This document shows, piece by piece, positions 7,413-64,000 of a DNA stretch of 64,000 nucleotides. The DNA comes from Streptosporangiaceae bacterium (GTDB lineage: Bacteria > Actinomycetota > Actinomycetes > Streptosporangiales > Streptosporangiaceae). The stretch is from assembly GCA_035606435.1 (NCBI GenBank), contig DATNFM010000054.1, positions 3,413-67,412 of the forward strand. The letters run 5' to 3'. The position numbers were made by a program, and so were the translations under genes. The first letter of the stretch is position 1; every line of letters begins with the position of its first letter. Under the pieces are notes generated by a model. It searched no databases. It saw only the letters and a program-made list of their open reading frames with translations, and was not told the DNA's origin.

Positions 7413-7477
7413 GGCGCGGTGCCGTCTGGACTGACGAGCGCAGTTTGCGAGGAGGGAAGACGGCGCCTAAGAGCGCC
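7413..7477. repeat. Third copy of the left arm of the long structured repeat (GGCGCGGTGCCGYCTGGACTGACGAGCGCAGTTTGCGAGGAGGGAAGRCGGCGCCTAAG.GCGCC)
   Basis: Near-identical to 55333..55396 and to the reverse complement of 54545..54617. Sits just 3' of the LuxR gene stop (7533). Confidence 0.8.
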
Positions 7478-47682: not shown

Positions 47683-48581
47683 GAGCGGTACTCCCGTCCG
47701 GTCAGCGCGAGGAACGCGTCTTCCAGCGTGGCGCCGCGCATCGTGAGGTCACGCAGCGCGTGGTGATCGGCCAGTTCGGCCAGCACCGGTCCCGGGTCGG
47801 AGCTGGCGATGACGAGCTCGGTCTCGTCTTCGGTCACCACCGCGTCCGGGAATCGCTTGCGCAGCAGGTCGGGATCCAGCTGGCCGGCTCCCACGGTGAT
47901 CCGCGCCACGGCCTCGACCTTGCGGATCAGCTTCTCCGGGGTGTCGCACTCGACGATGCGGCCGTGGTCGATGATCGCGACGCGGTCGCAGAGGATCTCG
48001 GCCTCTTCGATGTAGTGCGTCGTCAGCACGACGGTCCGGCCGGCCGCGTTGGTCGCGCGGAGCAGATCCCACAGGTTGCGCCGGGCCTGCGGATCGAGGC
48101 CGGCGGTGGGCTCGTCCAGGAACAGAACCTCGGGATCGTGCACCAGCGCGCACGCGATCGACAGCCGCTGCGCCTCGCCGCCGGACAGCCGCTCGACCTG
48201 CGTGCCACCCCGGCTGGTCAGCCCGAACAGCTCGAGCAGCTCCTCGCCTCGCGCCACCGGCACCCGGTAGAGCTTGGCGAAGGCGCGCAACTGCTCGGCC
48301 GCGGTTAGCCGCTCGAAGAAGGCAGAGGTCTGCAGCTGCACCCCGATCCGGCTCGCCAGCTTTTGATTGCGCGGCCAGGACGGCAGGCCGAGCACCTTCG
48401 CCGAACCTGAATCCGGCTGGCGGAGCCCTTCGATCATCTCCAGCGTCGTGGTCTTCCCCGCGCCGTTGGGTCCCAGCAGCCCGAAGAACTCCCCCGCGCC
48501 GACGTCTAACGAGACCCCGTCGACCGCGACCAGCTCGCCGTAAGTCTTCCGGAGATCCTGGGCCACCACAGCGTTGGTCAT
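47679..48581 (-). CDS. ABC transporter ATP-binding protein
   Basis: Walker A GPNGAGKTT; signature LSGGEAQRL; Walker B VLFLDEPT. Confidence 0.9.
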   Translation of the reverse strand: MTNAVVAQDLRKTYGELVAVDGVSLDVGAGEFFGLLGPNGAGKTTTLEMIEGLRQPDSGSAKVLGLPSWPRNQKLASRIGVQLQTSAFFERLTAAEQLRAFAKLYRVPVARGEELLELFGLTSRGGTQVERLSGGEAQRLSIACALVHDPEVLFLDEPTAGLDPQARRNLWDLLRATNAAGRTVVLTTHYIEEAEILCDRVAIIDHGRIVECDTPEKLIRKVEAVARITVGAGQLDPDLLRKRFPDAVVTEDETELVIASSDPGPVLAELADHHALRDLTMRGATLEDAFLALTGREYRS

Positions 48582-49444
48582 CTGGCGTCCTCCTCGATCA
48601 TCGCGTCCACTCCGGCCGCCAGGCGCTCGCCGTAGATCGCCTTGTTGGCCCGCAGGTGGGTCGCTGTGTGGGTGCGTGGATGCTCGTAGTGAAGGCAGTT
48701 CAGCTGACGAGCCGAGGTACGGAACGCACGGATGACGCCGACCCGCTCGGCCAGCTTGGTAATGAGATCATCGTCTTCACAGCCCCAGCCGGAATAACGC
48801 GCGCAGTAACCGCCGACGGCATCAAAGGTTGCCCATCGCACCAAGATTCCACCCCAGTGGAAGGGGAAAGCTGGGCAGGGGCTCCCGTCCTCGTAGCGCC
48901 AGCCGAATCCCGGCGGTGGTTCGACCGCCAGCAGCTCGGGGCCGAGCCAGCTGAATTGCTCGCCGCCCACCGGCACCAGCCTTCCCTGGGCGTCGGCAAA
49001 GACGTGACATAGCCGGCCGCCGCCTGGCCGCTCGAACGGCTGGGTGGCGAACAACGCGTCAGACGGATTGACTAGCCGGTACATCCACGGCTGAACTACC
49101 GCCTGGTCACCAAGCAGCTTCAAGGCCTGGCCGGCGAAGTCGCGGCCTACCGGCGCCACATCGCCGTCGCTCAGGTACAGCACCGGCGCCTGGCAGGCGG
49201 CGGCCGCGATGTTGCGCAGCGGTCCAGGGGCTGTCAAAGCCCCGTCAGCCCACACGATCTTGATCCGGTCGTCGGTGAGCGGCGGAATCCTCGTGCCAGC
49301 GGCCACCCCGACCACGACCTCGCAGGGCACGTCCTGGGCGAGCCAGGCCCGGCACACGGCGGGCAGCGCCTGGATCGCCTGATGATCGCCGAACAGCGGC
49401 AGCACTACCGACAGCTCAACGGAGGGCGCCTTAACCACCGACAT
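48578..49444 (-). CDS. GT-A fold glycosyltransferase with a beta-1,4-galactosyltransferase-like C-terminal motif
   Basis: LSVVLPLFG N-terminus; DxD-like SDGDV; GWGCEDDDL motif. Start at Met 28 of ORF 48578..49525. Confidence 0.7.
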   Translation of the reverse strand: MSVVKAPSVELSVVLPLFGDHQAIQALPAVCRAWLAQDVPCEVVVGVAAGTRIPPLTDDRIKIVWADGALTAPGPLRNIAAAACQAPVLYLSDGDVAPVGRDFAGQALKLLGDQAVVQPWMYRLVNPSDALFATQPFERPGGGRLCHVFADAQGRLVPVGGEQFSWLGPELLAVEPPPGFGWRYEDGSPCPAFPFHWGGILVRWATFDAVGGYCARYSGWGCEDDDLITKLAERVGVIRAFRTSARQLNCLHYEHPRTHTATHLRANKAIYGERLAAGVDAMIEEDAR

Positions 49445-49564
49445 AAGGCCGAGCGTAGGTACGGATCGGCCGCAGTGGAATGGGCCGCTGGCGACCGCAG
49501 CATCACCACAACAAAAGCGCAGCAACGGCTAGTTACATTGCGATCCGAGGAGCTTGTGCTGGCA

Positions 49565-49616: not shown

Positions 49617-50417
49617 GTGAGCGGAGGACCCGTAAGGTTTGGCATTGTGCCTGCTGCCGGCGCCGGGACGCGGCTGTCACCCTACCGCGCGCCCAAGGAA
49701 CTCATTCAGGTCGGATACCGCTCGGCCGGCGGGCAGTTGCTGCCGAAGGCGGCCATCGAGCACGTCCTGACGGCGATGGCGACCGGCGGAGCCGACCGTG
49801 CTTTCGTGATCTTGTCCCCGGCTAAATGGGATCTGTTCCGCTATCTCGGGTCCGGTGAGCACCTCGGCCTGGATCTGGCCTATCTGTGCCAGGAGACGCC
49901 GCTCGGCATGCCGCACGCGATCGACCTCGCCACGCCGTTCCTGGCCGGGCGGACGGTCGGCCTGGGAATGCCGGACACGATCGTGGCCCCCGCTGACTGC
50001 TTCGCCCAGCTCTTCGACTTCCACGATGCCACCAGGGCCGATCTCAGCCTGGGCGTGTTCCCGACGGCCGAACCGCAGTCACTGGCGCCGGTCGTGATTG
50101 AGCCCGGCTCGCACCGGGTTCTCGCGATCCTGGACAAGCCACTGGACCCGCCGGCCGCCAACACCTGGGGCATCGTGGTCTGGTCGCCGGTCTTCACCGA
50201 GATGCTGCACGACTACGTCGCGGGCGCGCTCCGGCAGCCGGGCGGGGAGCTGCTGCTGAGCGAGGTGTTCGCGGACGCGGTCACCGCCGGGCTGCGCGTT
50301 CACGCGCTTTCCTTCGACTCCGGCGAGTTTCACGACATCGGCAAGCCGGCCAACCTGATGCGCGCCCGGGCCTGGCTCGACAACGCCGGTGACGTCCTGG
50401 CGGGACACCAGCTATGA
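49617..50417 (+). CDS. Sugar-1-phosphate nucleotidyltransferase
   Basis: GIVPAAGAGTRLSPYRAPKEL (GxGTR) motif; 266 aa. Confidence 0.85.
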   Translation: MSGGPVRFGIVPAAGAGTRLSPYRAPKELIQVGYRSAGGQLLPKAAIEHVLTAMATGGADRAFVILSPAKWDLFRYLGSGEHLGLDLAYLCQETPLGMPHAIDLATPFLAGRTVGLGMPDTIVAPADCFAQLFDFHDATRADLSLGVFPTAEPQSLAPVVIEPGSHRVLAILDKPLDPPAANTWGIVVWSPVFTEMLHDYVAGALRQPGGELLLSEVFADAVTAGLRVHALSFDSGEFHDIGKPANLMRARAWLDNAGDVLAGHQL

Positions 50418-51520
50418 CCAACCTGCTGCTCGTCCCGTTTCCGCCCGCCGGGCATACGAAGCCGATGGAGGCGCTGGCCGGTCAATTACGCGCCGACGGG
50501 CACGCGGTCACGATCTTCGCCGAGACCGCGACAACCCGCTGGGGCATGCGACGGCCGGTGACCCCGCGGATGCACGCGTCCTACGACGCGGCGGCGCTGT
50601 TCCGGCACATGTTCGCCGGGAACGTCGCCGACATGGCCCGCGACGTCGTCGACCTGGCCGGTGCGTGCGGGGCCGAGCTGATCGTGACCGATGTGCTAAT
50701 GCCGGGCGGCGGGCTCGGGGCCGAACTGGCCAGACTGCCCTGGGTGTCGCTGGCCTGCACGCCGATCCCTGAGCTCGACACCTACCGGTACTTCTTGCCT
50801 CCCGAGGCAGGCGCCAGTTATGAGCCCCGCTCGACGCGGCTGGAGCTGGGGCTGCCGGCCGACGATGACCGCAACCTGCTCGCCCGTACCTCGGACCTGC
50901 TTCACCTGATCCCGACCACGCCGCGGTTCGCCGGCTTCCCGCAACTGCCCCCCGAGGTCGCGCTGACCGGCCCCTTCAACGCGATCCCGACCGCCTCACC
51001 AGCAAACGACGGCCGTCCGACGGTCACGGTGACCACGAGCAGCAACCCGATGGGACAGTTCGCCCGGATCGAGGATCGCTACCTCAAGGCCGCAGTTAAG
51101 GCGTTGACGAGCCTGGACATGACCGCCCTCATGGATCACGACGCCCCTCACTCCAAGCTCTTCCGGCAAAGTGACGCGGTAATCACCCACGGAGGCTGGG
51201 GCACTGTGTCCCGCGCGCTGCTGCTTGGCTTGCCGCTCGTCCTAGTGCCATTCGGCGCCGACCAGCCCTACATCGCCGGTCGTTGCGCCGATTTGGGAGC
51301 CGGGATCGTACTGCCAGCGCAGACCGTGACCGATGCCGAGCTTCGTGACGCCATCGGCGCGGTCATAGAAGAACCCAGCTATCGCAAGGCGGCCGCCGAG
51401 CTAGCCGCCGAGTTGCGGGAGGCCGAGCCACTATCGGTGGCTAGCTCGATGATCACATCCGTCTCCGCGGTGCCGGCCAAGGGGGACGACCCCCTATCAA
51501 CCCCCGCTTCAAGAAGGTGA
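50414..51520 (+). CDS. GT1 (MGT/UDP-glycosyltransferase-type) glycosyltransferase
   Basis: C-terminal donor motif ITHGGWGTVSRALLLGLPLVLVPFGADQ; ATGA overlap with the upstream gene. Confidence 0.85.
   Translation: MTNLLLVPFPPAGHTKPMEALAGQLRADGHAVTIFAETATTRWGMRRPVTPRMHASYDAAALFRHMFAGNVADMARDVVDLAGACGAELIVTDVLMPGGGLGAELARLPWVSLACTPIPELDTYRYFLPPEAGASYEPRSTRLELGLPADDDRNLLARTSDLLHLIPTTPRFAGFPQLPPEVALTGPFNAIPTASPANDGRPTVTVTTSSNPMGQFARIEDRYLKAAVKALTSLDMTALMDHDAPHSKLFRQSDAVITHGGWGTVSRALLLGLPLVLVPFGADQPYIAGRCADLGAGIVLPAQTVTDAELRDAIGAVIEEPSYRKAAAELAAELREAEPLSVASSMITSVSAVPAKGDDPLSTPASRR
51481..51506. repeat. Short-form hairpin element GGGGGACGACCCCCTATCAACCCCCG
   Basis: G5-ACGA-C5 then a C5 run; encodes the GT1 C-terminal tail KGDDPLSTPA. 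Confidence 0.75.
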
Positions 51521-53253
51521 CAGCTATGCCTATCCGCGTGATGCTCCTCGTCGTCCCCGGTGATCAGCCCATGTTCACCAAGATGAATTTGCCGCCCTTC
51601 GGGCCGGGCATCGTGGCCGCGAGCCTGCGCGACGCCGGTTACGAGGTCGACTTCCACGACCTCAACTCCGATCTGGAGCGGATGTGGCACGCGGGCGAGT
51701 TCACCAAGGCCGAACTGCGCCCGTTCTACGACGAGCGCGCGGTGATCGACTACATGGCTGGCGCCAGCGACGATTTCCTGGACTCGTTCGCCGGCCGCCT
51801 GCTGGCCGGCAAGGACATCGCCGCCGCCGATGTGGTGGGGATTTCGGCCGGCGGCGATTTCGCGTTCCTTGAAATGCAGTCAGCGGCCGTGCTCGGCGCG
51901 CACGTCCAGCGTCACTACGGCAAGCCGGTCGTGCTCGGCGGGAACAACCTCGATTACCTGATGCAATTCCACGACGCGTTCTACAGCTGGTGGAAGGCCT
52001 GCATCACGCATTTCTCGGCGGCCGTCACCGGCCCGGGCGAGGACGTGTTCGTCGAGCTCGCCCGGGCCCTGGGCGGCGGCGGGCCGCTGCTGCCGATGGC
52101 CAGGGCCGGCGTCGCCCGGGTGGCCGGCAATACGATCCTGCGGGCACCGGACGCCGTGCACCGCATCCTGGCCCCGGACTTCGACGGGCTCCGTCTGGAT
52201 GACTACAACAACTACATCCGGTACCGGCCAGAAGCCAGCGCGCGCAAGCAGGCCGTCGATGAGCAGTGGAACCGGATGCAGCTCTACAAGTTCCCGGCCT
52301 ACCTGAGCCGGCTGGCCAACGACGCGAACGCCGCTCAGATCGGCAAGGGCGCGTCCAGCACGCTGATCATGCCGTACGTCTTCAACTACAACTGCCCGTA
52401 CTCGTGCGCGTTCTGCACCGAGAGCCTGGAGCGGAACAAGCTCGTGCACGCCTCGGTCGACGACATCATCACCGACATGTCGGGGCTGGCCGAAAAGTAC
52501 CAGACCACGCACTTTTATCTGTTCAACAACTACTTCAACCTGCTCAACGGCTTCGTGGAGGAGTTCGCTAGCCGGGTCGTCATGCACGGCGTCAAGCTGA
52601 ACTGGTCGGACTGTGCGCGCTTCAACAGCCTCACCTACGAGCGCCTGGCGCTGCTCGCCGACTCTGGCTGCCGGAAGCTGACGTTCGGCCTGGAAACCGC
52701 CAGTAACACGATGCTGAAAATCATCGACAAGAAGGTCAAGCTGACCGAGGCCGAGCAAGTGCTGCGCTGGTGCAAGGAGATCGGAATCTGGGCCGACCTC
52801 GAGATCATCACGGGAATGCCGCACGAAGACGACAGGATCTTCGCCGATACGGCCGACTTCCTTGAGCGCAACTCCGACTACATCAACTACTTCCACATCA
52901 ACCGGTATTTCGTCGCGCCGAAGTCGCTGATGGGCGCCAAGCCCGAGGCGTACGGCATGAAGCTTCGCAAGGTTCCCGACGCCTACCAGCGGCTGCTGGA
53001 TGCCAACTATCAGTGGCTCGCCGACGACCTGGATATCTCCTACAAGCCGCAGAACTTCCGGGTCTACGAATTCGACGAGATCGGCGGCCGGACCGCCGAG
53101 GAACTCGCCGCCGACGTCGGCCCCAAGATCGCCAAGCTCAACGCGATCCAGAGCAGCGACTACATCGACGCGTTCCGGGTCTTGAGCCTGCAGCAGGACC
53201 GGCTGCCCAAGACGCCCGCCACCCTCAGCAACGACTCTATGGCGCTGGCCTGA
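51517..53253 (+). CDS. B12-binding-domain (class B) radical SAM enzyme
   Basis: N-terminal LPPFGPGIVAASLRDAGYEVDFHD B12-domain-like segment; CPYSCAFC (Cx3Cx2C); GTGA overlap with the GT1 stop. Confidence 0.8.
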   Translation: MTAMPIRVMLLVVPGDQPMFTKMNLPPFGPGIVAASLRDAGYEVDFHDLNSDLERMWHAGEFTKAELRPFYDERAVIDYMAGASDDFLDSFAGRLLAGKDIAAADVVGISAGGDFAFLEMQSAAVLGAHVQRHYGKPVVLGGNNLDYLMQFHDAFYSWWKACITHFSAAVTGPGEDVFVELARALGGGGPLLPMARAGVARVAGNTILRAPDAVHRILAPDFDGLRLDDYNNYIRYRPEASARKQAVDEQWNRMQLYKFPAYLSRLANDANAAQIGKGASSTLIMPYVFNYNCPYSCAFCTESLERNKLVHASVDDIITDMSGLAEKYQTTHFYLFNNYFNLLNGFVEEFASRVVMHGVKLNWSDCARFNSLTYERLALLADSGCRKLTFGLETASNTMLKIIDKKVKLTEAEQVLRWCKEIGIWADLEIITGMPHEDDRIFADTADFLERNSDYINYFHINRYFVAPKSLMGAKPEAYGMKLRKVPDAYQRLLDANYQWLADDLDISYKPQNFRVYEFDEIGGRTAEELAADVGPKIAKLNAIQSSDYIDAFRVLSLQQDRLPKTPATLSNDSMALA

Positions 53254-53608: not shown

Positions 53609-54646
53609 GTGAAGGCGCTCAGCATCCACCTGACCGACGTATGCAATAGCAAGTGCACGTTCTGCATTGTCGACGCGCCGTACATGAAGCAGGACACGAT
53701 CATGCGACGACGGGTGTCGAGGTTTCTCGCCGAGCACGCGGGTCAGGGCTACGAGGCGGTCAGCCTGCATGGCGGTGAGGCCACGGTCCGGCCGGACTTC
53801 CTTGAGATCCTGGACGAGATCGCCGAACGGGGCTACCCGACCGTGTTCTTGATGACCAACGGCCGCAAGTTCGCCCGGATGAACTACGCCCAGACCGTGG
53901 TCGGCAAGGGAGTCAGCGAGTTCATCATTTCGCTGCACGGCGCCACGGCCGCGACCCAGGACGGGATCAGCCTCGCGCGCGGATCGTTCGACCAGGCGAT
54001 CCAGGGCATCAAGAACGTCAAGGCACTGGGCGCGACGGTGCGCACGAACTCCGTCGTCTGCAAGGACAACTACACCGAGCTGCCGGCCATCATCGACCTC
54101 TGCCTGGATCTCGGAGCCGACCAGGTGAGCATCTCGGCGCTGCATACCTCCGGCACGGCGTTGCGCAACTTCGACAAGGTCACGCCGCGGTACGAGGTGA
54201 TCCGGCCGTACGTGGTCGAGGCGACCGACCGGGCGGTTCGCCGGGGCACCCGGCCGTACCTGGAGGGCTTCCCTTACTGCGCGGTGCCGCCGGAGTACGA
54301 GGAGTACCTGGTCGACTGGGAGGAACACAAGTACAAGGTCCTGTACCGCAGCTTCGTCATGGACGACTACGGCGACCACATGGACGACTTCGCCCGGGTG
54401 AAGGACGAGCGCTGCGACTCGTGCTTCTTCAACGACGTGTGCGGCGGCGTCTACAAGGAGTACGCCGAGTTCATCGGCTGGGACGAGTTCAAGCCAGTGC
54501 TGACCCGGGGGGACGACCCCCCGGAACCCCCCGAAGGTCGGGACGCCTTAGGCGCCGCCTTCCCTCCTCGCTCTGGCGCTTCGCTTTGTCGCTCGTCAGT
54601 CCAGGCGGCACCGCGCCCCGACGGTCCGGTGGTGACTGTTCAATGA
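53609..54646 (+). CDS. Radical SAM enzyme with a C-terminal auxiliary-cluster (SPASM/twitch-like) Cys motif, paralog 1
   Basis: CNSKCTFC (Cx3Cx2C) at residues 12-19; FPYC and CDSCFFNDVCGG. The last ~45 residues are encoded by the repeat element and its flank. Confidence 0.85.
   Translation: MKALSIHLTDVCNSKCTFCIVDAPYMKQDTIMRRRVSRFLAEHAGQGYEAVSLHGGEATVRPDFLEILDEIAERGYPTVFLMTNGRKFARMNYAQTVVGKGVSEFIISLHGATAATQDGISLARGSFDQAIQGIKNVKALGATVRTNSVVCKDNYTELPAIIDLCLDLGADQVSISALHTSGTALRNFDKVTPRYEVIRPYVVEATDRAVRRGTRPYLEGFPYCAVPPEYEEYLVDWEEHKYKVLYRSFVMDDYGDHMDDFARVKDERCDSCFFNDVCGGVYKEYAEFIGWDEFKPVLTRGDDPPEPPEGRDALGAAFPPRSGASLCRSSVQAAPRPDGPVVTVQ
54501..54619. repeat. Long structured repeat, left copy: hairpin element plus GGCGCC-TAA-GGCGCC stem region
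   Basis: The reverse complement matches 55331..55434, apart from an internal ~12-nt longer, diverged segment. Confidence 0.85.
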
Positions 54647-55320
54647 TCCCGATTACCAAGGCCGACGACGACCTCTTCGGGACGGCCGTACTCGCGACTC
54701 GGCTGGGGCGGGCCAGGGCGCTGATCGAGCATCTGCGTAAGCGGTACCACGACGAATGGGATGACCCGATGGCTGGCGTGCCGTTCGCGCTGGCGATGTT
54801 CGCCCTGGTGCAATCGGGGCGAACAGAGATCTCGGCGGAGTTCAACTTCACCGACATCATCGAGACGTTCGGCGATCTGCTTTATGACGAGCCCAATCAC
54901 TGGCTCGCCCGGTACCTGCGAATCCACGCCCGGACGCTGCTGCCGACCGACGGCGACTACCAGAACTACATGATCGCCGAGCGAGTCAGGGCCGCCGAGG
55001 ACGTCCAGGAACTGATCGACCGGCAGAGCCGGGCCGCCTGGCAGCCCTGGTTCACCTGCACCTACATCACGGCGGCCAGGCTGGCCTGGCAGACGAACCC
55101 GGCCGACCTGGACGCGATCGCGAAACTGGTCACGACGGCCGCTGAGTTGCCGTGCGCGCCGGTCAGGTTCCCCTCGCTCGGCAGCGTCATGTGCAGCTCG
55201 TTCTTCTTGTACTACGACCAGCCTGAACTGCCGGAACGAGACACGGTCGGCGCCTTGACGGGGCTGGTCTTCCCCGATCACCTGATCGTGAAGCGCGACC
55301 GGGTGGAGCGGCTCGCATGA
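54643..55320 (+). CDS. Hypothetical protein, paralog of 60327..61079
   Basis: 225 aa. ATGA overlaps at both ends. N-terminus MIPITKADDDLFG versus MRLITPADDELYG, and EPNHWLARY versus EPDHWFARY. Confidence 0.7.
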   Translation: MIPITKADDDLFGTAVLATRLGRARALIEHLRKRYHDEWDDPMAGVPFALAMFALVQSGRTEISAEFNFTDIIETFGDLLYDEPNHWLARYLRIHARTLLPTDGDYQNYMIAERVRAAEDVQELIDRQSRAAWQPWFTCTYITAARLAWQTNPADLDAIAKLVTTAAELPCAPVRFPSLGSVMCSSFFLYYDQPELPERDTVGALTGLVFPDHLIVKRDRVERLA

Positions 55321-56747
55321 GTGCCCGGGAGGGGCGCGGTGCCGCCTGGACTGACGAGCGCAGTTTGCGAGGAGGGAAGGCGGCGCCTAAGGCGCCCCTC
55401 CCTTCGGGGGGTTCCGGGGGGTCGTCCCCCCGGGCCAGCACAGCTAAGACCGTTCTCTTCATCGTCACCAGCTTCTGGGCCTTTGGTGAGTTGGCGATCG
55501 CGCTTGAGTTCGCCGAGCGGATGACCGGCACCGGATTCCGGCCGCTGTTCCTAATTCCGCCCACGCACCGGGCGCAGGTCGCCGCGACCGGGTTTGAATA
55601 CCAGGTCATGATCCCGGGAGCCGGAAAGATCAACCGGATTCAGCTCGCGGACATCGGCCATGTGCACCAGCCCGCGCTGGTCGTGCTCGCCGACTTCCTG
55701 AACTACGACTTCTGCGAGCGTCACTACGGGCTGCGCCGCGGCGATCTCGCCGTGTTCGGCTGCCCGATCGGTACCTTCGACGACTTCTCGTGGGGCCGGC
55801 CGGGCGCCTGGCTGGACACCTACGGATTCCAGGCGAAGGTCGAGGGCGAGATCACGCTCGACGGGCTGTCGTTCCGGTTGCGACCGTGTCCCCTCAATGA
55901 CCCGATAGCAGAGCACAATCCGCTCGATGAAATCGGTGAAGCCCAGATCTACCCGTACCCGATGCTCGAGAACGTCACCGACGTTCCCGACGACCATCGG
56001 GCCACCGTCCGGAGCGAACTCGGCCTGGCTAAGGACCGGCCGGTGGTGCTGGTGACCGGCGCGACGTGGCAGCGGACACACGAGGCGTATCCCAGGGTCA
56101 CGGCGTTCGTGAATGCCTGCAACTCGATGCTGGAACGGCTGCTGGCGAACCTGCTTCCGCACGCGGACGTGCTGGCCGTCGGGCCGCAACTGGTATTCGG
56201 TGACCAGGTGCCGGCTGGATTCCACCCGCTCGGATCGGTTCCGCCGGAGCGGTTCCAGCGGCTGATCCAGGCCGTCGACCTGCACATCTCGAACAACATC
56301 ATCTCGGTGAGCCTGCACCGGCTGGCGCTGCGCGGGATCCCGTCGGTCGTGATGATCAACTCCCTGCACAAGCGGTCCGGGCGACTCCGCTGGGAAATGC
56401 CCTCGGGGGGCTCCGGGGGGCCGTCCCCCCTGGCCAGCTCAGCGGCCCCAGGGCTGTCTGGGTTCGCCCAGGGAGTCATCGATGACCTCGACTACCTGTA
56501 TCCATACCGGATGTTCCCGGTCGGGTGGTACCACTTCCTGGACTCGTTGCTGGCCGGCAATCCGTTCAGCGACGTGATCACGCAGGTCGAGACGTTCGAC
56601 GAGGAGGCGGCGCTGGCCGCGATCCTCCCGTTGCTTGCCGCTGGTCCGGAGCGCGACCGGCTGGCAACTGCCCGCGAGCAATACCTCGAGGCGCTGCGCA
56701 AGCTGCCCGAGGTCGGTTCGATCCTGAATGAGGTGGCGGCGCTATGA
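55317..56747 (+). CDS. Divergent GT-B-like protein, paralog A (repeat-encoded N-terminal extension)
   Basis: Paralogous to 56744..58024 and 61092..62351. The first ~40 codons are the repeat element. A second element copy is in frame at 56401. Confidence 0.7.
   Translation: MSAREGRGAAWTDERSLRGGKAAPKAPLPSGGSGGSSPRASTAKTVLFIVTSFWAFGELAIALEFAERMTGTGFRPLFLIPPTHRAQVAATGFEYQVMIPGAGKINRIQLADIGHVHQPALVVLADFLNYDFCERHYGLRRGDLAVFGCPIGTFDDFSWGRPGAWLDTYGFQAKVEGEITLDGLSFRLRPCPLNDPIAEHNPLDEIGEAQIYPYPMLENVTDVPDDHRATVRSELGLAKDRPVVLVTGATWQRTHEAYPRVTAFVNACNSMLERLLANLLPHADVLAVGPQLVFGDQVPAGFHPLGSVPPERFQRLIQAVDLHISNNIISVSLHRLALRGIPSVVMINSLHKRSGRLRWEMPSGGSGGPSPLASSAAPGLSGFAQGVIDDLDYLYPYRMFPVGWYHFLDSLLAGNPFSDVITQVETFDEEAALAAILPLLAAGPERDRLATAREQYLEALRKLPEVGSILNEVAAL
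55331..55434. repeat. Long structured repeat, right copy (inverted relative to 54501..54619)
   Basis: GGGGCGCGGTGCCGCCTGGACTGACGAGCGCAGTTTGCGAGGAGGGAAGGCGGCGCCTAAGGCGCCCCTCCCTTCGGGGGGTTCCGGGGGGTCGTCCCCCCGGG. Confidence 0.9.
56401..56433. repeat. Hairpin element, reverse orientation variant (CCTCGGGGGGCTCCGGGGGGCCGTCCCCCCTGG)
   Basis: In frame as PSGGSGGPSPLA in GT-B-like paralog A. Confidence 0.8.
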
Positions 56748-58024
56748 AACTCCTGGTGCTAGCTCCAAGCCGGCGTTCGCGCGGGGATGCGATCATCGCC
56801 GCCGACCTGGCTCGATCGCTGCCGAGGTCGCGGTTTCAGGTCGCGTTCGCGGCGGCGCCTGAAGTCCTGTCCCAACTGCACGACCTGGGAATGCCGACGC
56901 TGCCGCTGACCGGCGCCACCCCGGCCGACAACCTAGCGATCCTGGATCAGATCGTCGCCGGCTTCAAGCCGGACTGCCTGGTCGCCGCCGACGCGTTCGA
57001 GCTGGAGCACACCACGAAGTGGTCGGGCCTGGCGATGGGCATGCTGCGCGAGCGCTACGGCCGGCCGGTCGCGAGCCTGGACCGGCTGGGCTGGCAGGCG
57101 GCCGGCTACAAGGCCGACATCTACGGCGGCGGCGCTGGCCAACTCAGTGAGCTGACCTTCCCGCCGCTGCTGGATGACTGCGACGTGCTGATCAGGCCGT
57201 GCCCGCCGCACCGGGCCGAGCCGGGTCCGGCTGGCGTTGTGGTGGCGCCGCTCGGGCTGTCCGGGCTGCGCGATGGAGGGCGAACGTCGGAGTCCGCCCG
57301 GGCGGACCATGCCTCTGGCAAGGAGGCGGAGACCACTCTGCCGCTGCTAGGGGGACGACCCCCTAGGACCCCCGACCAACCCGTAGTGTTTCTTTCCAAC
57401 TCAGCGTGGGAGTACCGCAACCGGACTCGGTCTCTGGCCGTGGCTGAGCTGATCGATGCGTTGCCGCGATTGATCCACAGTCATCTCGCCGCGCTGGGCC
57501 GGCGGCTGCGGGTGGTGCACGTCGGGGCGCGGCAGTGGCGGTTCCCGCTCGCCGACCAGATCGACTACCGGCACTTCAGCAAGCTGCCATACCAGATGTT
57601 CCACGAGAAGCTGGCGGCGGCGGACCTGTTCGTGACGACGAACGTGCTGTCGGTCACGCTCGCGCAAGCGGTGCTGTCCGGCGTCCCGGCGCTCGTCCTG
57701 GAGAACCACCAGACGCTCGGGGCATCCGAGTTGCCCGGCTGGGTTGGCGCGGCGGCCCCGCTGCTGCGTTCCGCGTATCCGTTCCGGGTCGCGCCGCTGG
57801 GCTGGCACGACTTCCTGGAGCCACTGCTGGCCGGGAACCCGTACGCCGACTGTTTCGCGAGCGCCGGGATCCTGGATCGGCAGGCGGTGCTCAGTGCGGT
57901 GAATGGGCTGCTGGACGACGAACCGGGTCGATCGCAGCTTAAGGAGCGTCAGCAGGGTTTCCGCGACGCGCTGGCCGGGCTCCCTCCGGTCGGCGAGGCC
58001 CTGGCGGCGGCGGTGCCTCGATGA
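56744..58024 (+). CDS. Divergent GT-B-like protein, paralog B
   Basis: MKLLVLAPS...GDAIIAADLARSLP N-terminus; C-terminal LFVTTNVLSVTLAQAVLSGVPALVL in place of the GT1 HGG..T donor motif. Confidence 0.7.
   Translation: MKLLVLAPSRRSRGDAIIAADLARSLPRSRFQVAFAAAPEVLSQLHDLGMPTLPLTGATPADNLAILDQIVAGFKPDCLVAADAFELEHTTKWSGLAMGMLRERYGRPVASLDRLGWQAAGYKADIYGGGAGQLSELTFPPLLDDCDVLIRPCPPHRAEPGPAGVVVAPLGLSGLRDGGRTSESARADHASGKEAETTLPLLGGRPPRTPDQPVVFLSNSAWEYRNRTRSLAVAELIDALPRLIHSHLAALGRRLRVVHVGARQWRFPLADQIDYRHFSKLPYQMFHEKLAAADLFVTTNVLSVTLAQAVLSGVPALVLENHQTLGASELPGWVGAAAPLLRSAYPFRVAPLGWHDFLEPLLAGNPYADCFASAGILDRQAVLSAVNGLLDDEPGRSQLKERQQGFRDALAGLPPVGEALAAAVPR
57350..57374. repeat. Short-form hairpin element GGGGGACGACCCCCTAGGACCCCCG (extended stem CTAGGGGG-ACGA-CCCCCTAG)
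   Basis: In frame as LGGRPPRTP in the interdomain region of paralog B. Confidence 0.8.
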
Positions 58025-59367
58025 CGGCCGTAAGCGAGGCGACTCGACCGCTGGCCGGCCGGCGCCGGATCGACCCGTCGACCGGGCGGGTGTTCTCCGC
58101 GAGCATGCGCAACGACTTCCTGACCCCGCGCGGTACCCCATACAAGTGGCAGGAACTGACGGCCAGCGTCGAGCGGACGGTGATCGGCGGCGGGGGGCCG
58201 ACCGTGGTGCCGGTGCGGTATGAATGGCAACGGGTGGACGCCCAGGTCGGCAATCCGGACGGGGCGCAGACGCGCCGGGAGTGGACGTTCGCCCGGGGGC
58301 AGAGCTTCACCTCGCTGCTGCTGCACACCGAACTGGACGGCGCCCTCGCGCCCATGCCGGACTTCGACGGGCCGACCTGCACCACGATGGACATCTCCTA
58401 TCCGGGGCTGCCGAAGTCGCCCGCGGTCGACTTGCTGCTGATGCTGAGCTGGGACGTCGTCACGTTCGAGATGATGGCGACGAACCTGATCACCACGCCG
58501 GAGCTACGCGAGGTGGGCGGCTGCACCAACCTGGAGCGGATCTCGGGAACCTGGGCCGAGCTCCGGTTCTCCGATCCCAGGTCGACCGCGGTCTTCAGGA
58601 ACGCGCGGGGGACGGCGCGGCACCTGGGGTACGGGCACGCCGACGGCCGGCCGACCCGGATCTACACCTCGACGTGCTTGGACTGCCAGCTGGATGTTCG
58701 GTCCGGGCCGCTGGCTGAGCGGGGCCGTTCGTCGTACTGGCTGACGCTGCAGGTCGACGCCGAGAGCGCGGACCTGCTGTCGGCCGAGATGACCGAGATG
58801 ATCGTCGCCACGCTGACCGGTCCTGAAGCGAAAGCAGTTCCGGTCTGCAAGCGCCGGACCGTGCGGCTGTGGGCCGGGCTGGAGCCGAGCGGACTCGATC
58901 CGGCCGAGCCTTCCGCCTCCGGGACGGTCGCGGTCCAGCGGCACGACCCAGAGGTGCTCGCCGAGGCGATTAGGTTCGCCGGGCAGGTCGCCCAGTATCT
59001 GGCCTGGCAGGTCTCGTCGCTGGAGAACCTGCCGCAAGGGATGTCCGAGCTGGCCTTGATGGGATTCCGCAGCCTGGTGGGGGCGGACCTGGCCAGTACG
59101 TTTCTGCGGGTCAAGTCGCTGCAGACCGATCTGGAGGCGGCCGCTCGATCCTCTTCCGGGCAGGCCGCCCTGGCGCAGGCGCTGCCCGAGCACCGTCGGC
59201 GCCTTGAGGGGCTGCTCGCCTTCGGGCAGCTGGCGGCCGACGGGACCAACCGAGGCCTGGTTCTCGAAGAAGCCGACCGCAGGGCGACGCGCGCCCGCCT
59301 GCAGTCGGTCAGCAACGACCTCATCGCCCTGCTCGGGCTAGTCGAAAAACTGGAGCAACCACAATGA
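58021..59367 (+). CDS. Hypothetical protein (448 aa), no recognisable motif
   Basis: ATGA overlaps at both ends inside the operon; coding-like composition. Confidence 0.7.
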   Translation: MTAVSEATRPLAGRRRIDPSTGRVFSASMRNDFLTPRGTPYKWQELTASVERTVIGGGGPTVVPVRYEWQRVDAQVGNPDGAQTRREWTFARGQSFTSLLLHTELDGALAPMPDFDGPTCTTMDISYPGLPKSPAVDLLLMLSWDVVTFEMMATNLITTPELREVGGCTNLERISGTWAELRFSDPRSTAVFRNARGTARHLGYGHADGRPTRIYTSTCLDCQLDVRSGPLAERGRSSYWLTLQVDAESADLLSAEMTEMIVATLTGPEAKAVPVCKRRTVRLWAGLEPSGLDPAEPSASGTVAVQRHDPEVLAEAIRFAGQVAQYLAWQVSSLENLPQGMSELALMGFRSLVGADLASTFLRVKSLQTDLEAAARSSSGQAALAQALPEHRRRLEGLLAFGQLAADGTNRGLVLEEADRRATRARLQSVSNDLIALLGLVEKLEQPQ

Positions 59368-60323
59368 AGGCCCTGAGCGTCCATCTGACCGACATCTGCA
59401 ATAGCAAATGTTCCTTCTGCATCGTCGACTCGCCGCATATCAAGGAGGACTCGATCTCCCGTAAGCGGGTCTCCCGGTTCCTGCGGGAGAACGCGGACAA
59501 GGGTTACGAGGCCGTCAACATCCACGGCGGCGAAGCCACGATCCGCCGCGACTTCCTCGAGATCCTGGACGAGATCGGCGAGCTGGGCTACCCCACCGTG
59601 TATCTGCAGACCAATGGCCGCAAGCTCTCCCACATGAAATACGCCCGCACCGTCGTGGACAAGGGCGTCAGCTTGTTCATCGTGTCGATGCACGGCGCGA
59701 CCGGCCTGACCCAGGACCGGATCAGCAAGTCGCTCGGTTCGTTCGAGCAGGCGGTCAAGGGCATCAAGAACGTCAGCGAGCTGGGCGCGAATATCAGGAC
59801 CAACACGGTGGCGTGCAAGGACAACTTCACCGAACTGCCGGAGATCGCCGATCTGTGCGTGGATCTCGGGGCCGATCACGTGAACATCTCCGCGCTGCAT
59901 ACGGCGGGGACCGCGTTCCGCAACTTCTGGGAGGTGACGCCTCGGTACGACGAGATCCAGCCGTACGTGTTCGAGGCCGTGGACCGGGTTGCCCGCCGGG
60001 AGCGGGCGATCACCTTGGAAGGCTTCCCCTACTGCGCGATCCCGGGCTACGAGAAGTACATGATCGACTGGTCAGAGAACCAGTTCAAGATGCTGTACCG
60101 GGCGTTCGTGTTCGAGGACTACGAGAACTACATGGACTCGAACTCGCGGGTCAAGGACGCTCGGTGCTCGGGGTGCGCCTTTGACGAGGTGTGCGGCGGG
60201 GTCTATAAGGAGTACGCCGAGATGATCGGCTGGGACGAATTCCAGCCCGTCCCCGCGGGAGATTCCGAGGGCTCGTCCCCACGGGCTGGCACAGCTCCGA
60301 CCCCGACTACCTTGACGGCGTAA
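59364..60323 (+). CDS. Radical SAM enzyme with a C-terminal auxiliary-cluster Cys motif, paralog 2
   Basis: CNSKCSFC; FPYC; CSGCAFDEVCGG. 43 of the first 60 residues are identical to paralog 1 by eye. Confidence 0.85.
   Translation: MKALSVHLTDICNSKCSFCIVDSPHIKEDSISRKRVSRFLRENADKGYEAVNIHGGEATIRRDFLEILDEIGELGYPTVYLQTNGRKLSHMKYARTVVDKGVSLFIVSMHGATGLTQDRISKSLGSFEQAVKGIKNVSELGANIRTNTVACKDNFTELPEIADLCVDLGADHVNISALHTAGTAFRNFWEVTPRYDEIQPYVFEAVDRVARRERAITLEGFPYCAIPGYEKYMIDWSENQFKMLYRAFVFEDYENYMDSNSRVKDARCSGCAFDEVCGGVYKEYAEMIGWDEFQPVPAGDSEGSSPRAGTAPTPTTLTA
60254..60285. repeat. Decayed reverse-orientation hairpin element (CGCGGGAGATTCCGAGGGCTCGTCCCCACGGG)
   Basis: Aligns with CGGGGGGTTCCGGGGGGTCGTCCCCCCGGG; encodes GDSEGSSPRAG in the C-terminal tail of rSAM paralog 2. 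Confidence 0.55.
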
Positions 60324-60326
60324 GTC

Positions 60327-61079
60327 GTGCGGCTTATTACGCCGGCCGATGATGAGCTGTACGGACTGGCCAGCGCGGCGGGGAAGCTAGGCCGGGCCGA
60401 TCGGCTGCTGGCCATGCTCGAACGGGAACACCTGGCGCGGCCGGGCGATGGCGAAGCGGCCGGGCGGTACGCGCTGGCGATGATGGCGGTGCTGCCTAGC
60501 GTCAACTTCGAACTGGCCGCGCACGCACCGTTCACCGCCGCGATCGACGCGTGGGGGCGGGTCCTCGCCATCGAGCCTGATCACTGGTTCGCCCGGTACG
60601 GCCGGGCCCGGCTGCAGACGTTGACCCCGGGCGGCTACGGCCTCGATTCCGCTGGTGCGGCCGATGAGCTCGCGTCGGCGCGGGCGGATCTGGATTTCCT
60701 GATCGACCTGCAGTCCGGGCTCGGGTACCAGCCGTACTTCGTCAGCACCCATGCGCTGGCGACGGTGCTGGACGGGCTTTGCGTGGAGTCGGCCCGGGTC
60801 GGCCGGCCTTCGCTGGCCGATGAGCTGGCGGCGTGCCCTCGGGTCAATGTGCGCCTGCCCGCTCTGGGCGCGGTGCTGTGCGAGCCGCTGGTCACCTTGT
60901 ACGCGGGGTCGGCCGAACGGGAACGGCACGCGATCGGCGAGGTTGCCGCCGCGTTGTACGGGGACCAGGCCGCCGTCGCCGCGCTGCGTCGCTCCCTGCT
61001 TCAGTGCTGGCCCGGGAGGTGGGCGGGGGGTGAAGCGGGCGGGACCCCCCTGATCCCCCCGCAGCCGGCGCGGCGGTGA
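60327..61079 (+). CDS. Hypothetical protein, paralog of 54643..55320
   Basis: 250 aa, GTG start 3 nt after the rSAM stop; the C-terminal tail is encoded by the variant-B element. Confidence 0.7.
   Translation: MRLITPADDELYGLASAAGKLGRADRLLAMLEREHLARPGDGEAAGRYALAMMAVLPSVNFELAAHAPFTAAIDAWGRVLAIEPDHWFARYGRARLQTLTPGGYGLDSAGAADELASARADLDFLIDLQSGLGYQPYFVSTHALATVLDGLCVESARVGRPSLADELAACPRVNVRLPALGAVLCEPLVTLYAGSAERERHAIGEVAAALYGDQAAVAALRRSLLQCWPGRWAGGEAGGTPLIPPQPARR
61018..61060. repeat. Variant-B G/C-run element (GGTGGGCGGGGGGTGAAGCGGGCGGGACCCCCCTGATCCCCCC)
   Basis: Matches 46526..46569; encodes WAGGEAGGTPLIPP. Confidence 0.75.
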
Positions 61080-61091
61080 GGCGATGAGGCG

Positions 61092-62351
61092 GTGAGTATC
61101 CGGCGGGTGCTTTTTCTCGGGCTTGGCCACCTGTCCAACGGCGATATCAGCATCGCGGCCGACTTCGCGCGCCAGCTGCCTTCTGACCGCTTCGAGGTCG
61201 CGTTCGTCACGTCCGCTACCGCTGCGGCGTTCGTCCGGGCGACCGGCCTCGTCGTTCATCCCCTGGTGAGCCGCGACCCCGAGCGCAACCTGGACACCTT
61301 CGACCGGCTGGTGGCCGACTTCCGGCCCGACCTGTTCGTCGCGGCCGACGCCTACACGCTCTATTACTCCACCGCCTGGTCGGGCCTGTCCGTTCCGCTG
61401 CTGCGCGAGCGCTATGGCATCGCGCTCGCGAGCTTCGATCAGTACGACTACCTGGCCGCGGACTACGCCGTCGACTTCTACGGTGGCCACCGGACCCGGT
61501 TCCCGCGGCTGCTGGACGAGTGCGACCTGCTGATCCGCAACAGCCCGCTGAACCGTCCGGCGCCCAGCGACCCGGGAGTGATCGTGACTCGGATGGGCTG
61601 TGCCGGCGGCTCGTCGTCGCTACCGGTCTCGCGGCCGCACCGCGACCGGCCGACGGTCTTCCTCACGAACTCCCGCTGGGAGTCCGTGAACGTGGTGCAC
61701 TCGCCGGCCATGGGCCAGCTGATGGCCGCCATGCCGCGAATCCTGCACAGCCACCTGGCCGCCCTGCAACGCCCGCTTCGCGTGGTCCACATCGGGCCGG
61801 AACGGTGGGACTTCCCGGTCGCCCCGCAGCTCGACTACCGGTACGCGACGGGACTGCCGCCGGACGAGTTCCACGCGCAGCTGACCGGAGCCGACCTGTA
61901 CATCACCGGCAACGCCGTGTCGGTCACGCTGACGCAGGCGGTGCTCGCCGGGGTGCCGTGCCTGTTGCTCGACAACCACAAGATGCTCGACCTGTCTCGT
62001 CTGGCCAGGAACGGGTCCATCCCGGCCTGGCTGACCGAAGCCGCGCCCCAGCTGACCATCGCCTACCCGTTCCGGGTGTTCCCGTGGGGCTGGCACGACT
62101 TCCTGACGCCGGTGCTATCGGACAACCCGTACCTGGACTGCTTCCTGGCCGCCGGGGTGTTCGAGCGCCGCCGCGTGCTGGCCGCCATGACCCAGCTGCT
62201 CGACGATGCGACGGTGCGGGACCAGCTGGCCGAACGGCAAGCCGTCCTGCTCAAGCGCCTAGACGAGCTCCCGCCGGCCGGCGATGCGCTGGAGTCGGCT
62301 GAGTTCGCCCGCCCGGTTCGGGGCAGCCGCATTACTGAGGGAGCGTCATGA
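61092..62351 (+). CDS. Divergent GT-B-like protein, paralog C
   Basis: VLFLGLGHLSNGDISIAADFARQLP N-terminus; DLYITGNAVSVTLTQAVLAGVPCLLL C-terminal motif. Confidence 0.7.
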   Translation: MSIRRVLFLGLGHLSNGDISIAADFARQLPSDRFEVAFVTSATAAAFVRATGLVVHPLVSRDPERNLDTFDRLVADFRPDLFVAADAYTLYYSTAWSGLSVPLLRERYGIALASFDQYDYLAADYAVDFYGGHRTRFPRLLDECDLLIRNSPLNRPAPSDPGVIVTRMGCAGGSSSLPVSRPHRDRPTVFLTNSRWESVNVVHSPAMGQLMAAMPRILHSHLAALQRPLRVVHIGPERWDFPVAPQLDYRYATGLPPDEFHAQLTGADLYITGNAVSVTLTQAVLAGVPCLLLDNHKMLDLSRLARNGSIPAWLTEAAPQLTIAYPFRVFPWGWHDFLTPVLSDNPYLDCFLAAGVFERRRVLAAMTQLLDDATVRDQLAERQAVLLKRLDELPPAGDALESAEFARPVRGSRITEGAS

Positions 62352-63584: not shown

Positions 63585-64000
63585 GTGACGACCCTCGGGC
63601 CGGCCAGAGTCAGCCGGACCGCGCTCGGAGTCGCGATGGTCCGGGCGATGGAAAGCCGCCGTCGCGACCGGCTCTTCTGCGACCCGTACGCCGCCGCGTT
63701 CCTCGCCGCCGCGCCCGAGGTCTTCGATCGAGCCGAACGGGGCGCGGTGGCCTGCCTGTCCGGCCTGTCAGCCGCGGGCACCGCGTTCTGGTCTCGGGCC
63801 GTGATCCGCACCCGGTTCTTCGACGACTACCTGGTCGACGCCGTCGGTGCGGGCATACGTCAGGTCGTGCTGCTCGCGGCCGGGCTGGACACCAGGGCGT
63901 TCCGGCTGAACTGGCCGGCCGACGTGCGGCTGTTCGAGCTGGACCTGCCCGAGGTGCTCGAATTCAAGCGGCAGGTACTGGCGTCGCGATCGGCCAGGCC
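63585..64000 (+). CDS. SAM-dependent (carboxyl/O-) methyltransferase of the TIGR00027/LCM-like family, 3'-truncated by the window end
   Basis: Manual translation from GTG 63585: TTLGPARVSRTALGVAMVRAMESRRRDRLFCDPYAAAFL...VVLLAAGLDTRAFRL. Absent from the ORF track because no stop lies in the window. Confidence 0.7.
   Translation, partial: MTTLGPARVSRTALGVAMVRAMESRRRDRLFCDPYAAAFLAAAPEVFDRAERGAVACLSGLSAAGTAFWSRAVIRTRFFDDYLVDAVGAGIRQVVLLAAGLDTRAFRLNWPADVRLFELDLPEVLEFKRQVLASRSAR

Follow-up and report, generated by a model that had tools for sequence, protein, structure and literature searches.

In a 64,000-nucleotide (nt) stretch of Streptosporangiaceae DNA (the window; contig DATNFM010000054.1, with all positions counted within the window), a forward-strand operon carries two related sets of genes. 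Each set encodes a small radical S-adenosylmethionine enzyme (rSAM-1, rSAM-2), a protein of a rare helical family (H1, H2) and proteins of the DUF6365 family (A and B in the first set, C in the second). The unit that was copied consists of rSAM, H and one type of DUF6365 protein, the B-type, represented by B and C; A, which is of another type, and protein X, encoded between the two sets, were not copied. We consider the chances to be about even that these genes form the core of a cluster for an uncharacterised product, which would be a radical SAM-modified and glycosylated RiPP (a peptide made on the ribosome and modified after its translation) or a small molecule derived from one. The RiPP context is proposed because a small protein encoded just upstream of rSAM-1 passes the precursor model NF038399 and because the operon is tightly packed. 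RiPP gene clusters are a known kind; this uncharacterised one is built from three orphan families, DUF6365, H and X. Our literature search returned no account of the cluster and no mention of DUF6365, and only papers on the Os1348 family and on HxsC were relevant.

A duplicated unit within a five-part set

The initial annotation had described two copies of a three-gene cassette (rSAM, H and a GT-B-like protein) in one operon, with A as the first-cassette counterpart of C and B as an extra paralog. All seven of its open reading frames (ORFs) are present on the forward strand at the positions it gave (Table 1), and the duplication is real in that all three families form homologous pairs, but the partner of C is B and not A. 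In BLASTP comparisons, rSAM-1 aligns with rSAM-2 over 310 residues at 65% identity (E 2e-160); 43 of the first 60 residues are identical, as had been counted by eye, and both proteins contain the motifs CNSKCxFC, FPYC and CxxCx5CGG, whose cysteines are invariant in 14 orthologs. H1 and H2 are diverged and homologous, as proposed (33% identity, E 5e-32). The GT-B-like trio is homologous as well, all three being DUF6365 proteins (PF19892), and the segments MIPITKADDDLFG/MRLITPADDELYG and EPNHWLARY/EPDHWFARY quoted for the H and GT-B-like proteins are all present. Within this trio B and C are 46% identical (E 4e-124), compared to 25% for A and C (E 2e-28) and 27% for A and B (E 3e-34).

Neighbour-joining trees of the paralogs (200 bootstraps) also join C with B; A as the first-cassette partner of C was thus rejected on identity and trees together, and A is a much older paralog than B and C. 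The A-type clade has 100% bootstrap support and is ~24% identical to all other DUF6365 proteins. In two-cassette clusters, C and B form separate clades (100% and 98%), as do rSAM-1 (100%), rSAM-2 (97%), H1 (98%) and H2 (97%), and identities within the H1 and H2 clades are 51–66% and 58–73%. Since each paralog forms its own clade across genera, the duplication is an ancient event with both copies maintained; a recent tandem duplication was rejected for the same reason. At least 12 genomes, from several families, have intact reading frames for both cassette copies. The rSAM gene was duplicated independently at least three times, in the actinomycete 1/2 pair, in Anaerolineae and in an older "beta" lineage with the order rSAM-H-rSAM-H-A-B. 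Rhizohabitans arisaemae and Virgisporangium aurantiacum have precursor-rSAM-H-A-B-X only, and in the trees they never fall outside the group made up of copies 1 and 2. These single-cassette actinomycetes may have split off near the time of the duplication, or may have lost cassette 2.

The two-cassette layout occurs in at least nine actinomycete genera. Its carriers are Catellatospora (two species), Dactylosporangium (two), Micromonospora sonchi, Longispora, Solwaraspora, Natronosporangium, Streptomyces echiniscabiei, Actinocrinis, a Streptosporangiaceae metagenome-assembled genome (MAG) and several metagenome contigs; this Streptosporangiaceae MAG is the closest relative of the window (96% in rSAM-2). 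A scan with the rSAM alignment, taking one genome per species, gave 41 loci, which were annotated with hidden Markov models (HMMs) made from the actinomycete proteins. The expected co-occurrence of the three families was borne out, with rSAM, H and DUF6365 found together in 24 of the 36 loci L010–L045, in three phyla (six of them repeat retrievals of other loci). The triad as the conserved, universal unit was however rejected in favour of a set of five parts: rSAM, H, an A-type and a B-type DUF6365 protein, and X. An Anaerolineae MAG, Virgisporangium ochraceum, Gorillibacterium and more than 12 Clostridia (among them Ruminiclostridium papyrosolvens, Acetivibrio straminisolvens and Lachnoclostridium phytofermentans) likewise carry this full set along with the precursor, and at higher rank the core is found in Chloroflexota, many Clostridia and Paenibacillaceae; in a Cellvibrionaceae MAG (Proteobacteria) the core set is present and H was not detected by the HMM.

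Complete loci each have exactly one A-type and one B-type DUF6365 protein. Two adjacencies are constant: A comes after rSAM, either directly or with H in between, and X comes after B. The remaining gene order varies. The clostridial loci have rSAM next to the A-type, whereas their H gene is flanked by the precursor on one side and the B-type DUF6365-X pair on the other, so that H is not strictly tied to rSAM. The earlier idea of a unit applied twice survives in part: the repeated rSAM(-H) duplications and an extra tyrosine in the precursor fit two sites, but what is repeated is not a strict triad. A distant branch (Bryobacterales, Blastocatellia and Mycobacteriales MAGs) has a precursor, an NTP_transferase-DUF6365-rSAM run and a B12-radical SAM gene, and in Acidobacteria, where a reduced rSAM-DUF6365 relative occurs, NTP_transferase, DUF6365 and rSAM adjoin one another.

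Precursor peptide and protein families

The precursor gene, which the initial annotation had overlooked and which gives the cassettes their context, has 105 codons and ends nine bases upstream of rSAM-1. Residues 17–74 match NF038399 ("Os1348 family NHLP clan protein") with 48.1 bits (cutoff 40), which places the peptide in that family; PF14407 (Frankia_peptide in Pfam) matches weakly. The peptide contains the conserved motif EEFFAVDSAVYTPED and an acidic tail with GYEMYD. A near-invariant motif, EE[YF]F..D.AVYTP[DE], recurs across phyla, in the fuller form LTPENLEE[YF]F[SA][AV]D[SAT]AVYTP[DE] in precursors from Actinomycetota, Chloroflexota, Bacillota and Proteobacteria, and the tail after AVYTP[DE] is variable and very acidic. 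Precursors of the distant branch end in YY. As tyrosine is the sole feature in common with this YY-ended branch, we infer that the tyrosine of AVYTP, possibly together with the adjacent threonine, is the primary modified site. All loci with two rSAMs of the family have at least one tail tyrosine downstream of AVYTP, and all loci that lack a tail tyrosine (five minimal clostridial or Paenibacillaceae loci and four others) have a single family rSAM.

Proteusins and other RiPPs with NHLP leaders share with this cluster the leader clan and a precursor passing the Os1348-family model (PMC7726476), and a B12-radical SAM enzyme is present as in proteusin pathways. In contrast to proteusins, there is no PoyD-type epimerase, GG cleavage motif or cyclodehydratase here: no operon protein reaches the cutoff of TIGR04517 (PoyD-type), for which only a spurious 15.6-bit match of the precursor was obtained, and the peptide is thus not classed as a proteusin. 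The founding member of the family, Os1348 from Pseudomonas sp. Os17, is a precursor protein that is small and folded and has unrelated processing enzymes (PMC7726476), and the HEXXH, SagB and GNAT enzymes of its pos cluster have no match here.

Both small rSAMs are radical SAM proteins by PF04055 (60.8 and 65.7 bits, cutoff 29.5), and the three cysteines of CX3CX2C (C12, C16 and C19) are invariant in 14 sequences. Only four further cysteines are conserved, C224, C268, C271 and C277 (FPYC and CX2CX5C), and neither protein matches the SPASM model PF13186; on this basis we read the enzymes as probably twitch-like, with a single auxiliary cluster. Each begins straight at CX3CX2C, with no N-terminal extension and hence no N-terminal peptide-recognition domain, and the operon encodes no RiPP recognition element (RRE) or PqqD protein. 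The nearest curated models for both are HxsC4 (NF038332; E 1e-41) and HxsC (TIGR03977; E 5e-31), with full-length coverage. Membership is not reached in either case, with 143 and 138 bits for HxsC4 (cutoff 500) and 108 and 98 bits for HxsC (cutoff 268), nor is it for MftC (TIGR03962; 68 bits, cutoff 265) or PqqE (TIGR02109; 71 bits, cutoff 381). The best sequence match of rSAM-2 in the PDB is BlsE, a cytosylglucuronate decarboxylase (E 2.6e-12), with PqqE also among the best.

HxsC matures a protein substrate in complex with the small non-catalytic HxsD, by chemistry that is undefined (PMC13128918), and this complex parallels the rSAM-H pair. The HXS system, in which the radical SAM enzymes HxsB and HxsC together with HxsD mature HxsA, is a phage-defence system without glycosyltransferases; in the present cluster HxsA, HxsB and HxsD are missing, as are His-Xaa-Ser repeats and a peptidoglycan-binding effector. 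Separately, the clostridial locus of R. papyrosolvens C7 (L025, 4469–19707) has, in addition to the family rSAM, a row of 5–6 small rSAM-SPASM genes and two rSAMs of the B12 type, an arrangement unusually rSAM-dense for a RiPP locus and similar in L029, L032 and L036.

H proteins are rare, with only 22 homologs of H1 among 5.8e9 proteins, and neither H1 nor H2 matches a Pfam or NCBIfam model. The AlphaFold2 (AF2) model of H (confidence score pLDDT 90.8) is all-helical, with 13 helices. In Foldseek it matches TPR proteins best, among them the TPR domains of OGT and SPY, at modest scores; a clostridial H matches TPR_14 with E 1.4e-4, below the cutoff. Profiles of H, DUF6365 and X returned nothing meaningful among PDB sequences. 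We propose from the model that H may be a TPR-like, peptide-docking adaptor.

Protein X consists of ~290 conserved residues and, in actinomycetes, a helical C-terminal extension. It matches no Pfam or NCBIfam model, even at E ≤ 10 for 12 orthologs, and every homolog bears the annotation "hypothetical protein". Some Lachnospiraceae have B and X joined in a single 725-residue protein. In some actinomycete clusters a third H-like protein is encoded on the other strand (L009 19434–20474, L013 14921–16228, L018 15907–17043 and L008 18068–18766, all on the minus strand), which in three of them weakly matches the X profile (22–43 bits); this suggests that an H domain may be joined there to X's helical C-terminal extension. 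No equivalent of this protein was found in the portion of the cluster inside the window.

A, B and C all belong to DUF6365 (246.8, 179.3 and 201.3 bits, cutoff 32.5; E 5e-73, 1.5e-52 and 3e-59), a small family: of 1.84 billion representatives, 614 match it at E ≤ 1e-3. In the AF2 model of C (pLDDT 92.7), β and α elements alternate in two halves, as expected of a GT-B fold. Foldseek gave 305 PDB matches at E ≤ 1e-3 for this model, and the best-ranked are almost all GT-B enzymes of family GT1, led by the elaiophylin glycosyltransferase (E 7e-15) and followed by VinC, CalG3, LanGT2 and SpnP. The predicted two-Rossmann architecture is thus that of GT1 natural-product glycosyltransferases (the above, CalG1, CalG4 and UrdGT2; E 7e-15 to 1e-11). 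DUF6365 has an invariant motif of its own, [ST]-x-N-x-x-S-x-[ST] ... G-[VI]-P ... N, in place of the GT1 donor motif. Its C-terminal D..N..S...G.P spacing recalls the GT1 donor-binding box. This D..N..S / G.P motif is kept in A- and B-types alike, and therefore neither looks degenerate; the idea that A or B is a degenerate, non-catalytic partner was unsupported. The streptococcal GtfA/GtfB complex consists of two GT-B proteins, and DUF6365 A and B, two paralogous GT-B proteins, are likewise always co-present.

DUF6365 domains are found fused to NTP_transferase (P0252, P0280), a polysaccharide pyruvyl transferase (PS_pyruv_trans; P0307) and X (P0174, P0176). These fusions and the adjacency of NTP_transferase genes in actinomycete and acidobacterial loci are the strongest argument that DUF6365 moves a nucleotide-activated sugar, and the family may comprise transferases that depend on nucleoside diphosphate (NDP)-sugars. 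A TPR-like, peptide-binding module combined with GT-B catalysis is also the layout of the protein O-glycosyltransferases OGT and SPY. In the present cluster, however, H and DUF6365 form two distinct polypeptides, neither of which resembles GT41 or GT4 in sequence, and the TPR match is generic.

Candidate pathway and its alternatives

Building on the homologies, folds, fusions, synteny and phylogeny described above, we propose a substrate site, a type of reaction and an order of steps for the favoured RiPP reading. The substrate would be the 105-residue precursor, with its folded NHLP/Os1348-type leader, AVYTP motif and acidic tail, and the ancestral machine would have had the five parts listed above, with a twitch-type rSAM. 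H would dock and present the very acidic precursor, a role suggested by the lack of a recognition domain in rSAM itself. The rSAM would abstract a hydrogen at or near the invariant AVYTP tyrosine, and the A/B pair of DUF6365 proteins would attach NDP-activated sugars, supplied by the nucleotidylyltransferase of the cluster, to the Tyr/Thr site or to a growing glycan, with X working alongside the B-type enzyme. Further tailoring would fall to the B12-radical SAM enzyme, the GT1 enzyme, the GT7C-like enzyme, the cytochrome P450 and the LCM-type methyltransferase, and the ABC-2 transporter would export the product. Each rSAM-H pair would serve one tyrosine site, and cassette 2 (rSAM-2/H2/C) most likely repeats the same chemistry at the second tyrosine, in the tail (GYExY). 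On balance we think it unlikely that the product is a new, tyrosine-centred glycoconjugate found across phyla, in which rSAM and DUF6365 both act on the AVYTP tyrosine and the duplicated cassette makes a second unit. The route to it would be radical-enabled (for example C-C or C-O linked) sugar-tyrosine chemistry, or a glycosylated cofactor of the pyrroloquinoline quinone (PQQ) or mycofactocin kind, and such a conjugate would define a RiPP class of its own.

Several observations weigh against the favoured reading. No member of the system has a known product, modification or enzyme activity, and the small rSAMs score far under every curated family cutoff (143 vs 500 bits for HxsC4). With a sugar-nucleoside decarboxylase, BlsE, as the best PDB match, rSAM could act on a sugar. 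The TPR similarity of H is weak (Foldseek E 0.02–0.1, TM-score ~0.5). For DUF6365, the HGGxGT and D/E-Q donor motif of GT1 is absent, which leaves the family outside GT1; no glycosyltransferase Pfam model matches A, B or C, whereas the neighbouring GT1 enzyme of the operon does match, no sequence match to DUF6365 was obtained in the PDB, and the TM-scores to the GT1 structures are only ~0.5. Unlike GT1 enzymes, DUF6365 proteins also have a peptide as their presumed acceptor and always come as an A-type/B-type pair. Clostridial clusters have no sugar-nucleotide genes in the ~20 kb examined. The relation between rSAM number and tail tyrosines runs in one direction only and comes from loci that are phylogenetically non-independent; six single-cassette loci (L007, L008, L029, L032, L034 and L036) have a tail tyrosine and are exceptions to one rSAM per tyrosine. 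Finally, the strongly conserved AVYTP stretch could instead serve for recognition or cleavage, and the true core would then be the variable tail.

The same cluster and precursor also accommodate a possible, if doubtful, alternative in which the small rSAMs tailor the NDP-sugar or the peptide-attached sugar. C-H abstraction would then lead to epimerisation, deoxygenation, decarboxylation or oxidation, as in BlsE, BtrN and DesII, H would serve the glycosyltransferases as their TPR adaptor, in the manner of a split OGT, and each cassette would add a differently tailored sugar. The BlsE match of rSAM-2 (E 2.6e-12) points this way, as do the gene neighbourhoods: rSAM always adjoins the A-type DUF6365 protein, the Acidobacteria have the order NTP_transferase-DUF6365-rSAM, the clostridial H lies beside the precursor and the B-type protein and away from rSAM, and sugar genes abound in the actinomycete clusters (NTP_transferase, GT1, GT7C-like, hexapeptide transferase, PIG-L and DegT). 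However, rSAM is much more similar to the protein-modifying HxsC4 and HxsC (143 and 108 bits over the full length) than to BlsE, which it matches in the N-terminal half only (65 bits), the tandem order rSAM-H, rSAM-H in L024, L028 and L031 suggests that rSAM and H work as pairs, and rSAM number follows the tyrosine content of the tail.

A cofactor-like product would be a different outcome, and one we regard as quite unlikely: the peptide would be the scaffold for a small, tyrosine-derived, glycosylated cofactor or signal, cut from AVYTP as in PQQ and mycofactocin, and cassette 2 would make a second unit or variant from the tail tyrosine. The MftA precursor of mycofactocin ends in a C-terminal VY, which the YY-ended precursors of the distant branch recall. 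The conservation of the precursor and of AVYTP over three or four phyla is unusual and more like that of a cofactor than of an antibiotic RiPP, and PqqE and MftC are among the rSAM matches. Their scores are, however, far below the cutoffs, and no peptidase, flavoenzyme or dependent dehydrogenase was recognised in the clusters. The SARP regulator and ABC exporter point instead to a secreted secondary metabolite, and the spread is patchy, amounting to only hundreds of clusters at 50% identity, and untied to one type of metabolism.

The parallel with mycofactocin itself is close in outline. Mycofactocin starts from a ribosomal precursor with tyrosine as its key residue, on which an auxiliary-cluster rSAM acts that needs a separate peptide-binding partner; after modification at tyrosine the product is oligoglycosylated (PMC7491314). 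The components differ in kind. MftC has a full SPASM domain, and the rSAMs here reach 68 of the 265 bits required by its model; MftB is of RRE/PqqD type, compared to the TPR-like H, and MftF is a GT2 (GT-A) enzyme, compared to the GT-B-like DUF6365. The target in MftA is the terminal VY, in contrast to the internal AVYTP, and no equivalents of MftD or MftE were found in the operon. By analogy, the system appears closest in its working to mycofactocin maturation and OGT-type glycosylation, and it is a member of neither.

That the second cassette is a redundant or decaying leftover is very improbable: several genes of the region carry repeat-element insertions in this genome, which is no direct evidence, and single-cassette clusters exist (L007, L008), but a decaying copy was rejected on conservation, given intact copies in at least 12 genomes with 97–100% support for each clade, the retention of all Fe-S ligand cysteines and DUF6365 signature residues, and the 33% identity of H1 and H2, each conserved in its own clade, as expected after subfunctionalisation.

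If the RiPP reading with its five-part machine is correct, the cluster would represent a new class of ribosomal peptide product or a peptide-derived cofactor, with a core machinery common to soil actinomycetes, cellulolytic Clostridia, Chloroflexota and one Cellvibrionaceae locus in which H was not detected. It would also give first functions to DUF6365, as an A/B-paired NDP-sugar glycosyltransferase, to H, as an adaptor that replaces the RRE, and to X, as an obligate partner of the B-type enzyme. One- and two-cassette clusters with zero, one or two tail tyrosines would then form a natural series on how a maturase is re-targeted after duplication.

Gene neighbourhood and repeat insertions

On the forward strand, each gene from 49617 up to the window's end either shares 4 nt with the next or lies 3–28 nt away from it; these genes are therefore assigned to one operon, in agreement with the single operon of the initial annotation. 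Its first half has the order NTP_transferase, canonical GT1, B12-radical SAM, precursor, rSAM-1, H1 and A, and its second half B, X, rSAM-2, H2, C, P450 and LCM-type methyltransferase (Table 1). The B12-binding enzyme is likely a C-methyltransferase; its score is under every curated cutoff. The LCM-type gene is cut by the end of the window, and the cluster therefore extends beyond it. Orthologous clusters carry on after this gene with PIG-L or polysaccharide deacetylase genes. Among loci with neighbouring genes listed, the P450 and LCM-type genes occur only beside a second cassette. In Catellatospora sp. IY07-71, an IS605/OrfB (Cas12f-like TnpB) gene lies between C and the P450 gene (L001 17383–18588, minus strand). 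Genes of the divergent operon upstream also lie upstream in L001, L003, L005 and L009.

Table 1. Features of the cluster and of the associated repeat, in window coordinates.
Feature	Position	Strand	Remarks
SARP/AfsR-type regulator	42395–45289	+	Trans_reg_C, BTAD, NB-ARC, TPR; same type adjoins L002 and L008
Divergent operon: Glyco_transf_7C-like glycosyltransferase, ABC-2 exporter (ATPase and permease), hexapeptide-repeat transferase	45225–49525	-	
Sugar-1-phosphate nucleotidylyltransferase (NTP_transferase)	49617–50417	+	Domain fused to DUF6365 elsewhere
Canonical GT1 glycosyltransferase	50414–51520	+	EryCIII-like_C / UDPGT
B12-binding radical SAM enzyme	51517–53253	+	Kept in nearly all related clusters
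Precursor peptide, 105 aa	53282–53599	+	NHLP-clan (Os1348-type) leader, NF038399
rSAM-1, small, putatively twitch-like radical SAM	53609–54646	+	CX3CX2C at C12/C16/C19; FPYC and CX2CX5C
H1, 225 aa, predicted all-helical, TPR-like	54643–55320	+	Rare family; AF2 model, Foldseek
DUF6365 A-type (A)	55317–56747	+	Old GT-B paralog; two in-frame repeat insertions
DUF6365 B-type (B)	56744–58024	+	True counterpart of C
Protein X, 448 aa	58021–59367	+	No Pfam or PDB relative; always after B-type DUF6365
rSAM-2	59364–60323	+	Paralog of rSAM-1; all cluster cysteines kept
H2	60327–61079	+	Paralog of H1; C-terminal ~25 residues from repeat insertion
DUF6365 C, B-type copy, predicted GT-B fold	61092–62351	+	AF2 model and Foldseek
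Cytochrome P450	62348–63580	+	
LCM-type carboxyl methyltransferase, start only	63586–64000	+	Assigned from orthologous loci and translation
~125-nt repeat copy	54497–54619	+	Forms 3' end of rSAM-1 (residues 298–345)
Inverted repeat copy	55331–55441	-	Inside 5' end of gene A
Repeat hairpin core	56404–56433	-	
Repeat hairpin core	47247–47276	+	
Repeat hairpin core	31988–32017	+	
Related repeat pieces	7413–7471, 51447–51506, 46514–46569, 61006–61061		

A GC-rich interspersed repeat of ~125 nt with internal palindromes (CCCGGGGGGACGACCCCCCGG; GGCGCCTTAGGCGCC) is inserted in frame in coding regions of this genome. Two near-identical inverted copies (95–100%) flank the entire H1 gene. The repeat supplies the ~48 last residues of rSAM-1 and ~39 N-terminal plus 13 internal residues of A, and it also contributes H2's tail and part of the ABC permease; the closest ortholog (L010) lacks these insertions. 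The ORF lengths first given for rSAM-1, at its 3' end, and for A were inflated by these insertions.

Several short tandem arrays with periods of 15 or 18 nt, unrelated to the cassettes, lie at 306–425, 12542–12615, 13170–13250, 15993–16067 and 22392–22481 and, if within genes, probably encode Pro/Ala/Thr-rich repeats. Between 27116 and 27872 there are 5–6 diverged repeats at a spacing of ~135–160 nt, with a coding motif like G-[IV]-N-D-x-G-x-x-V-G-[FY]-[FY], which suggests a gene for a repeat-domain protein.

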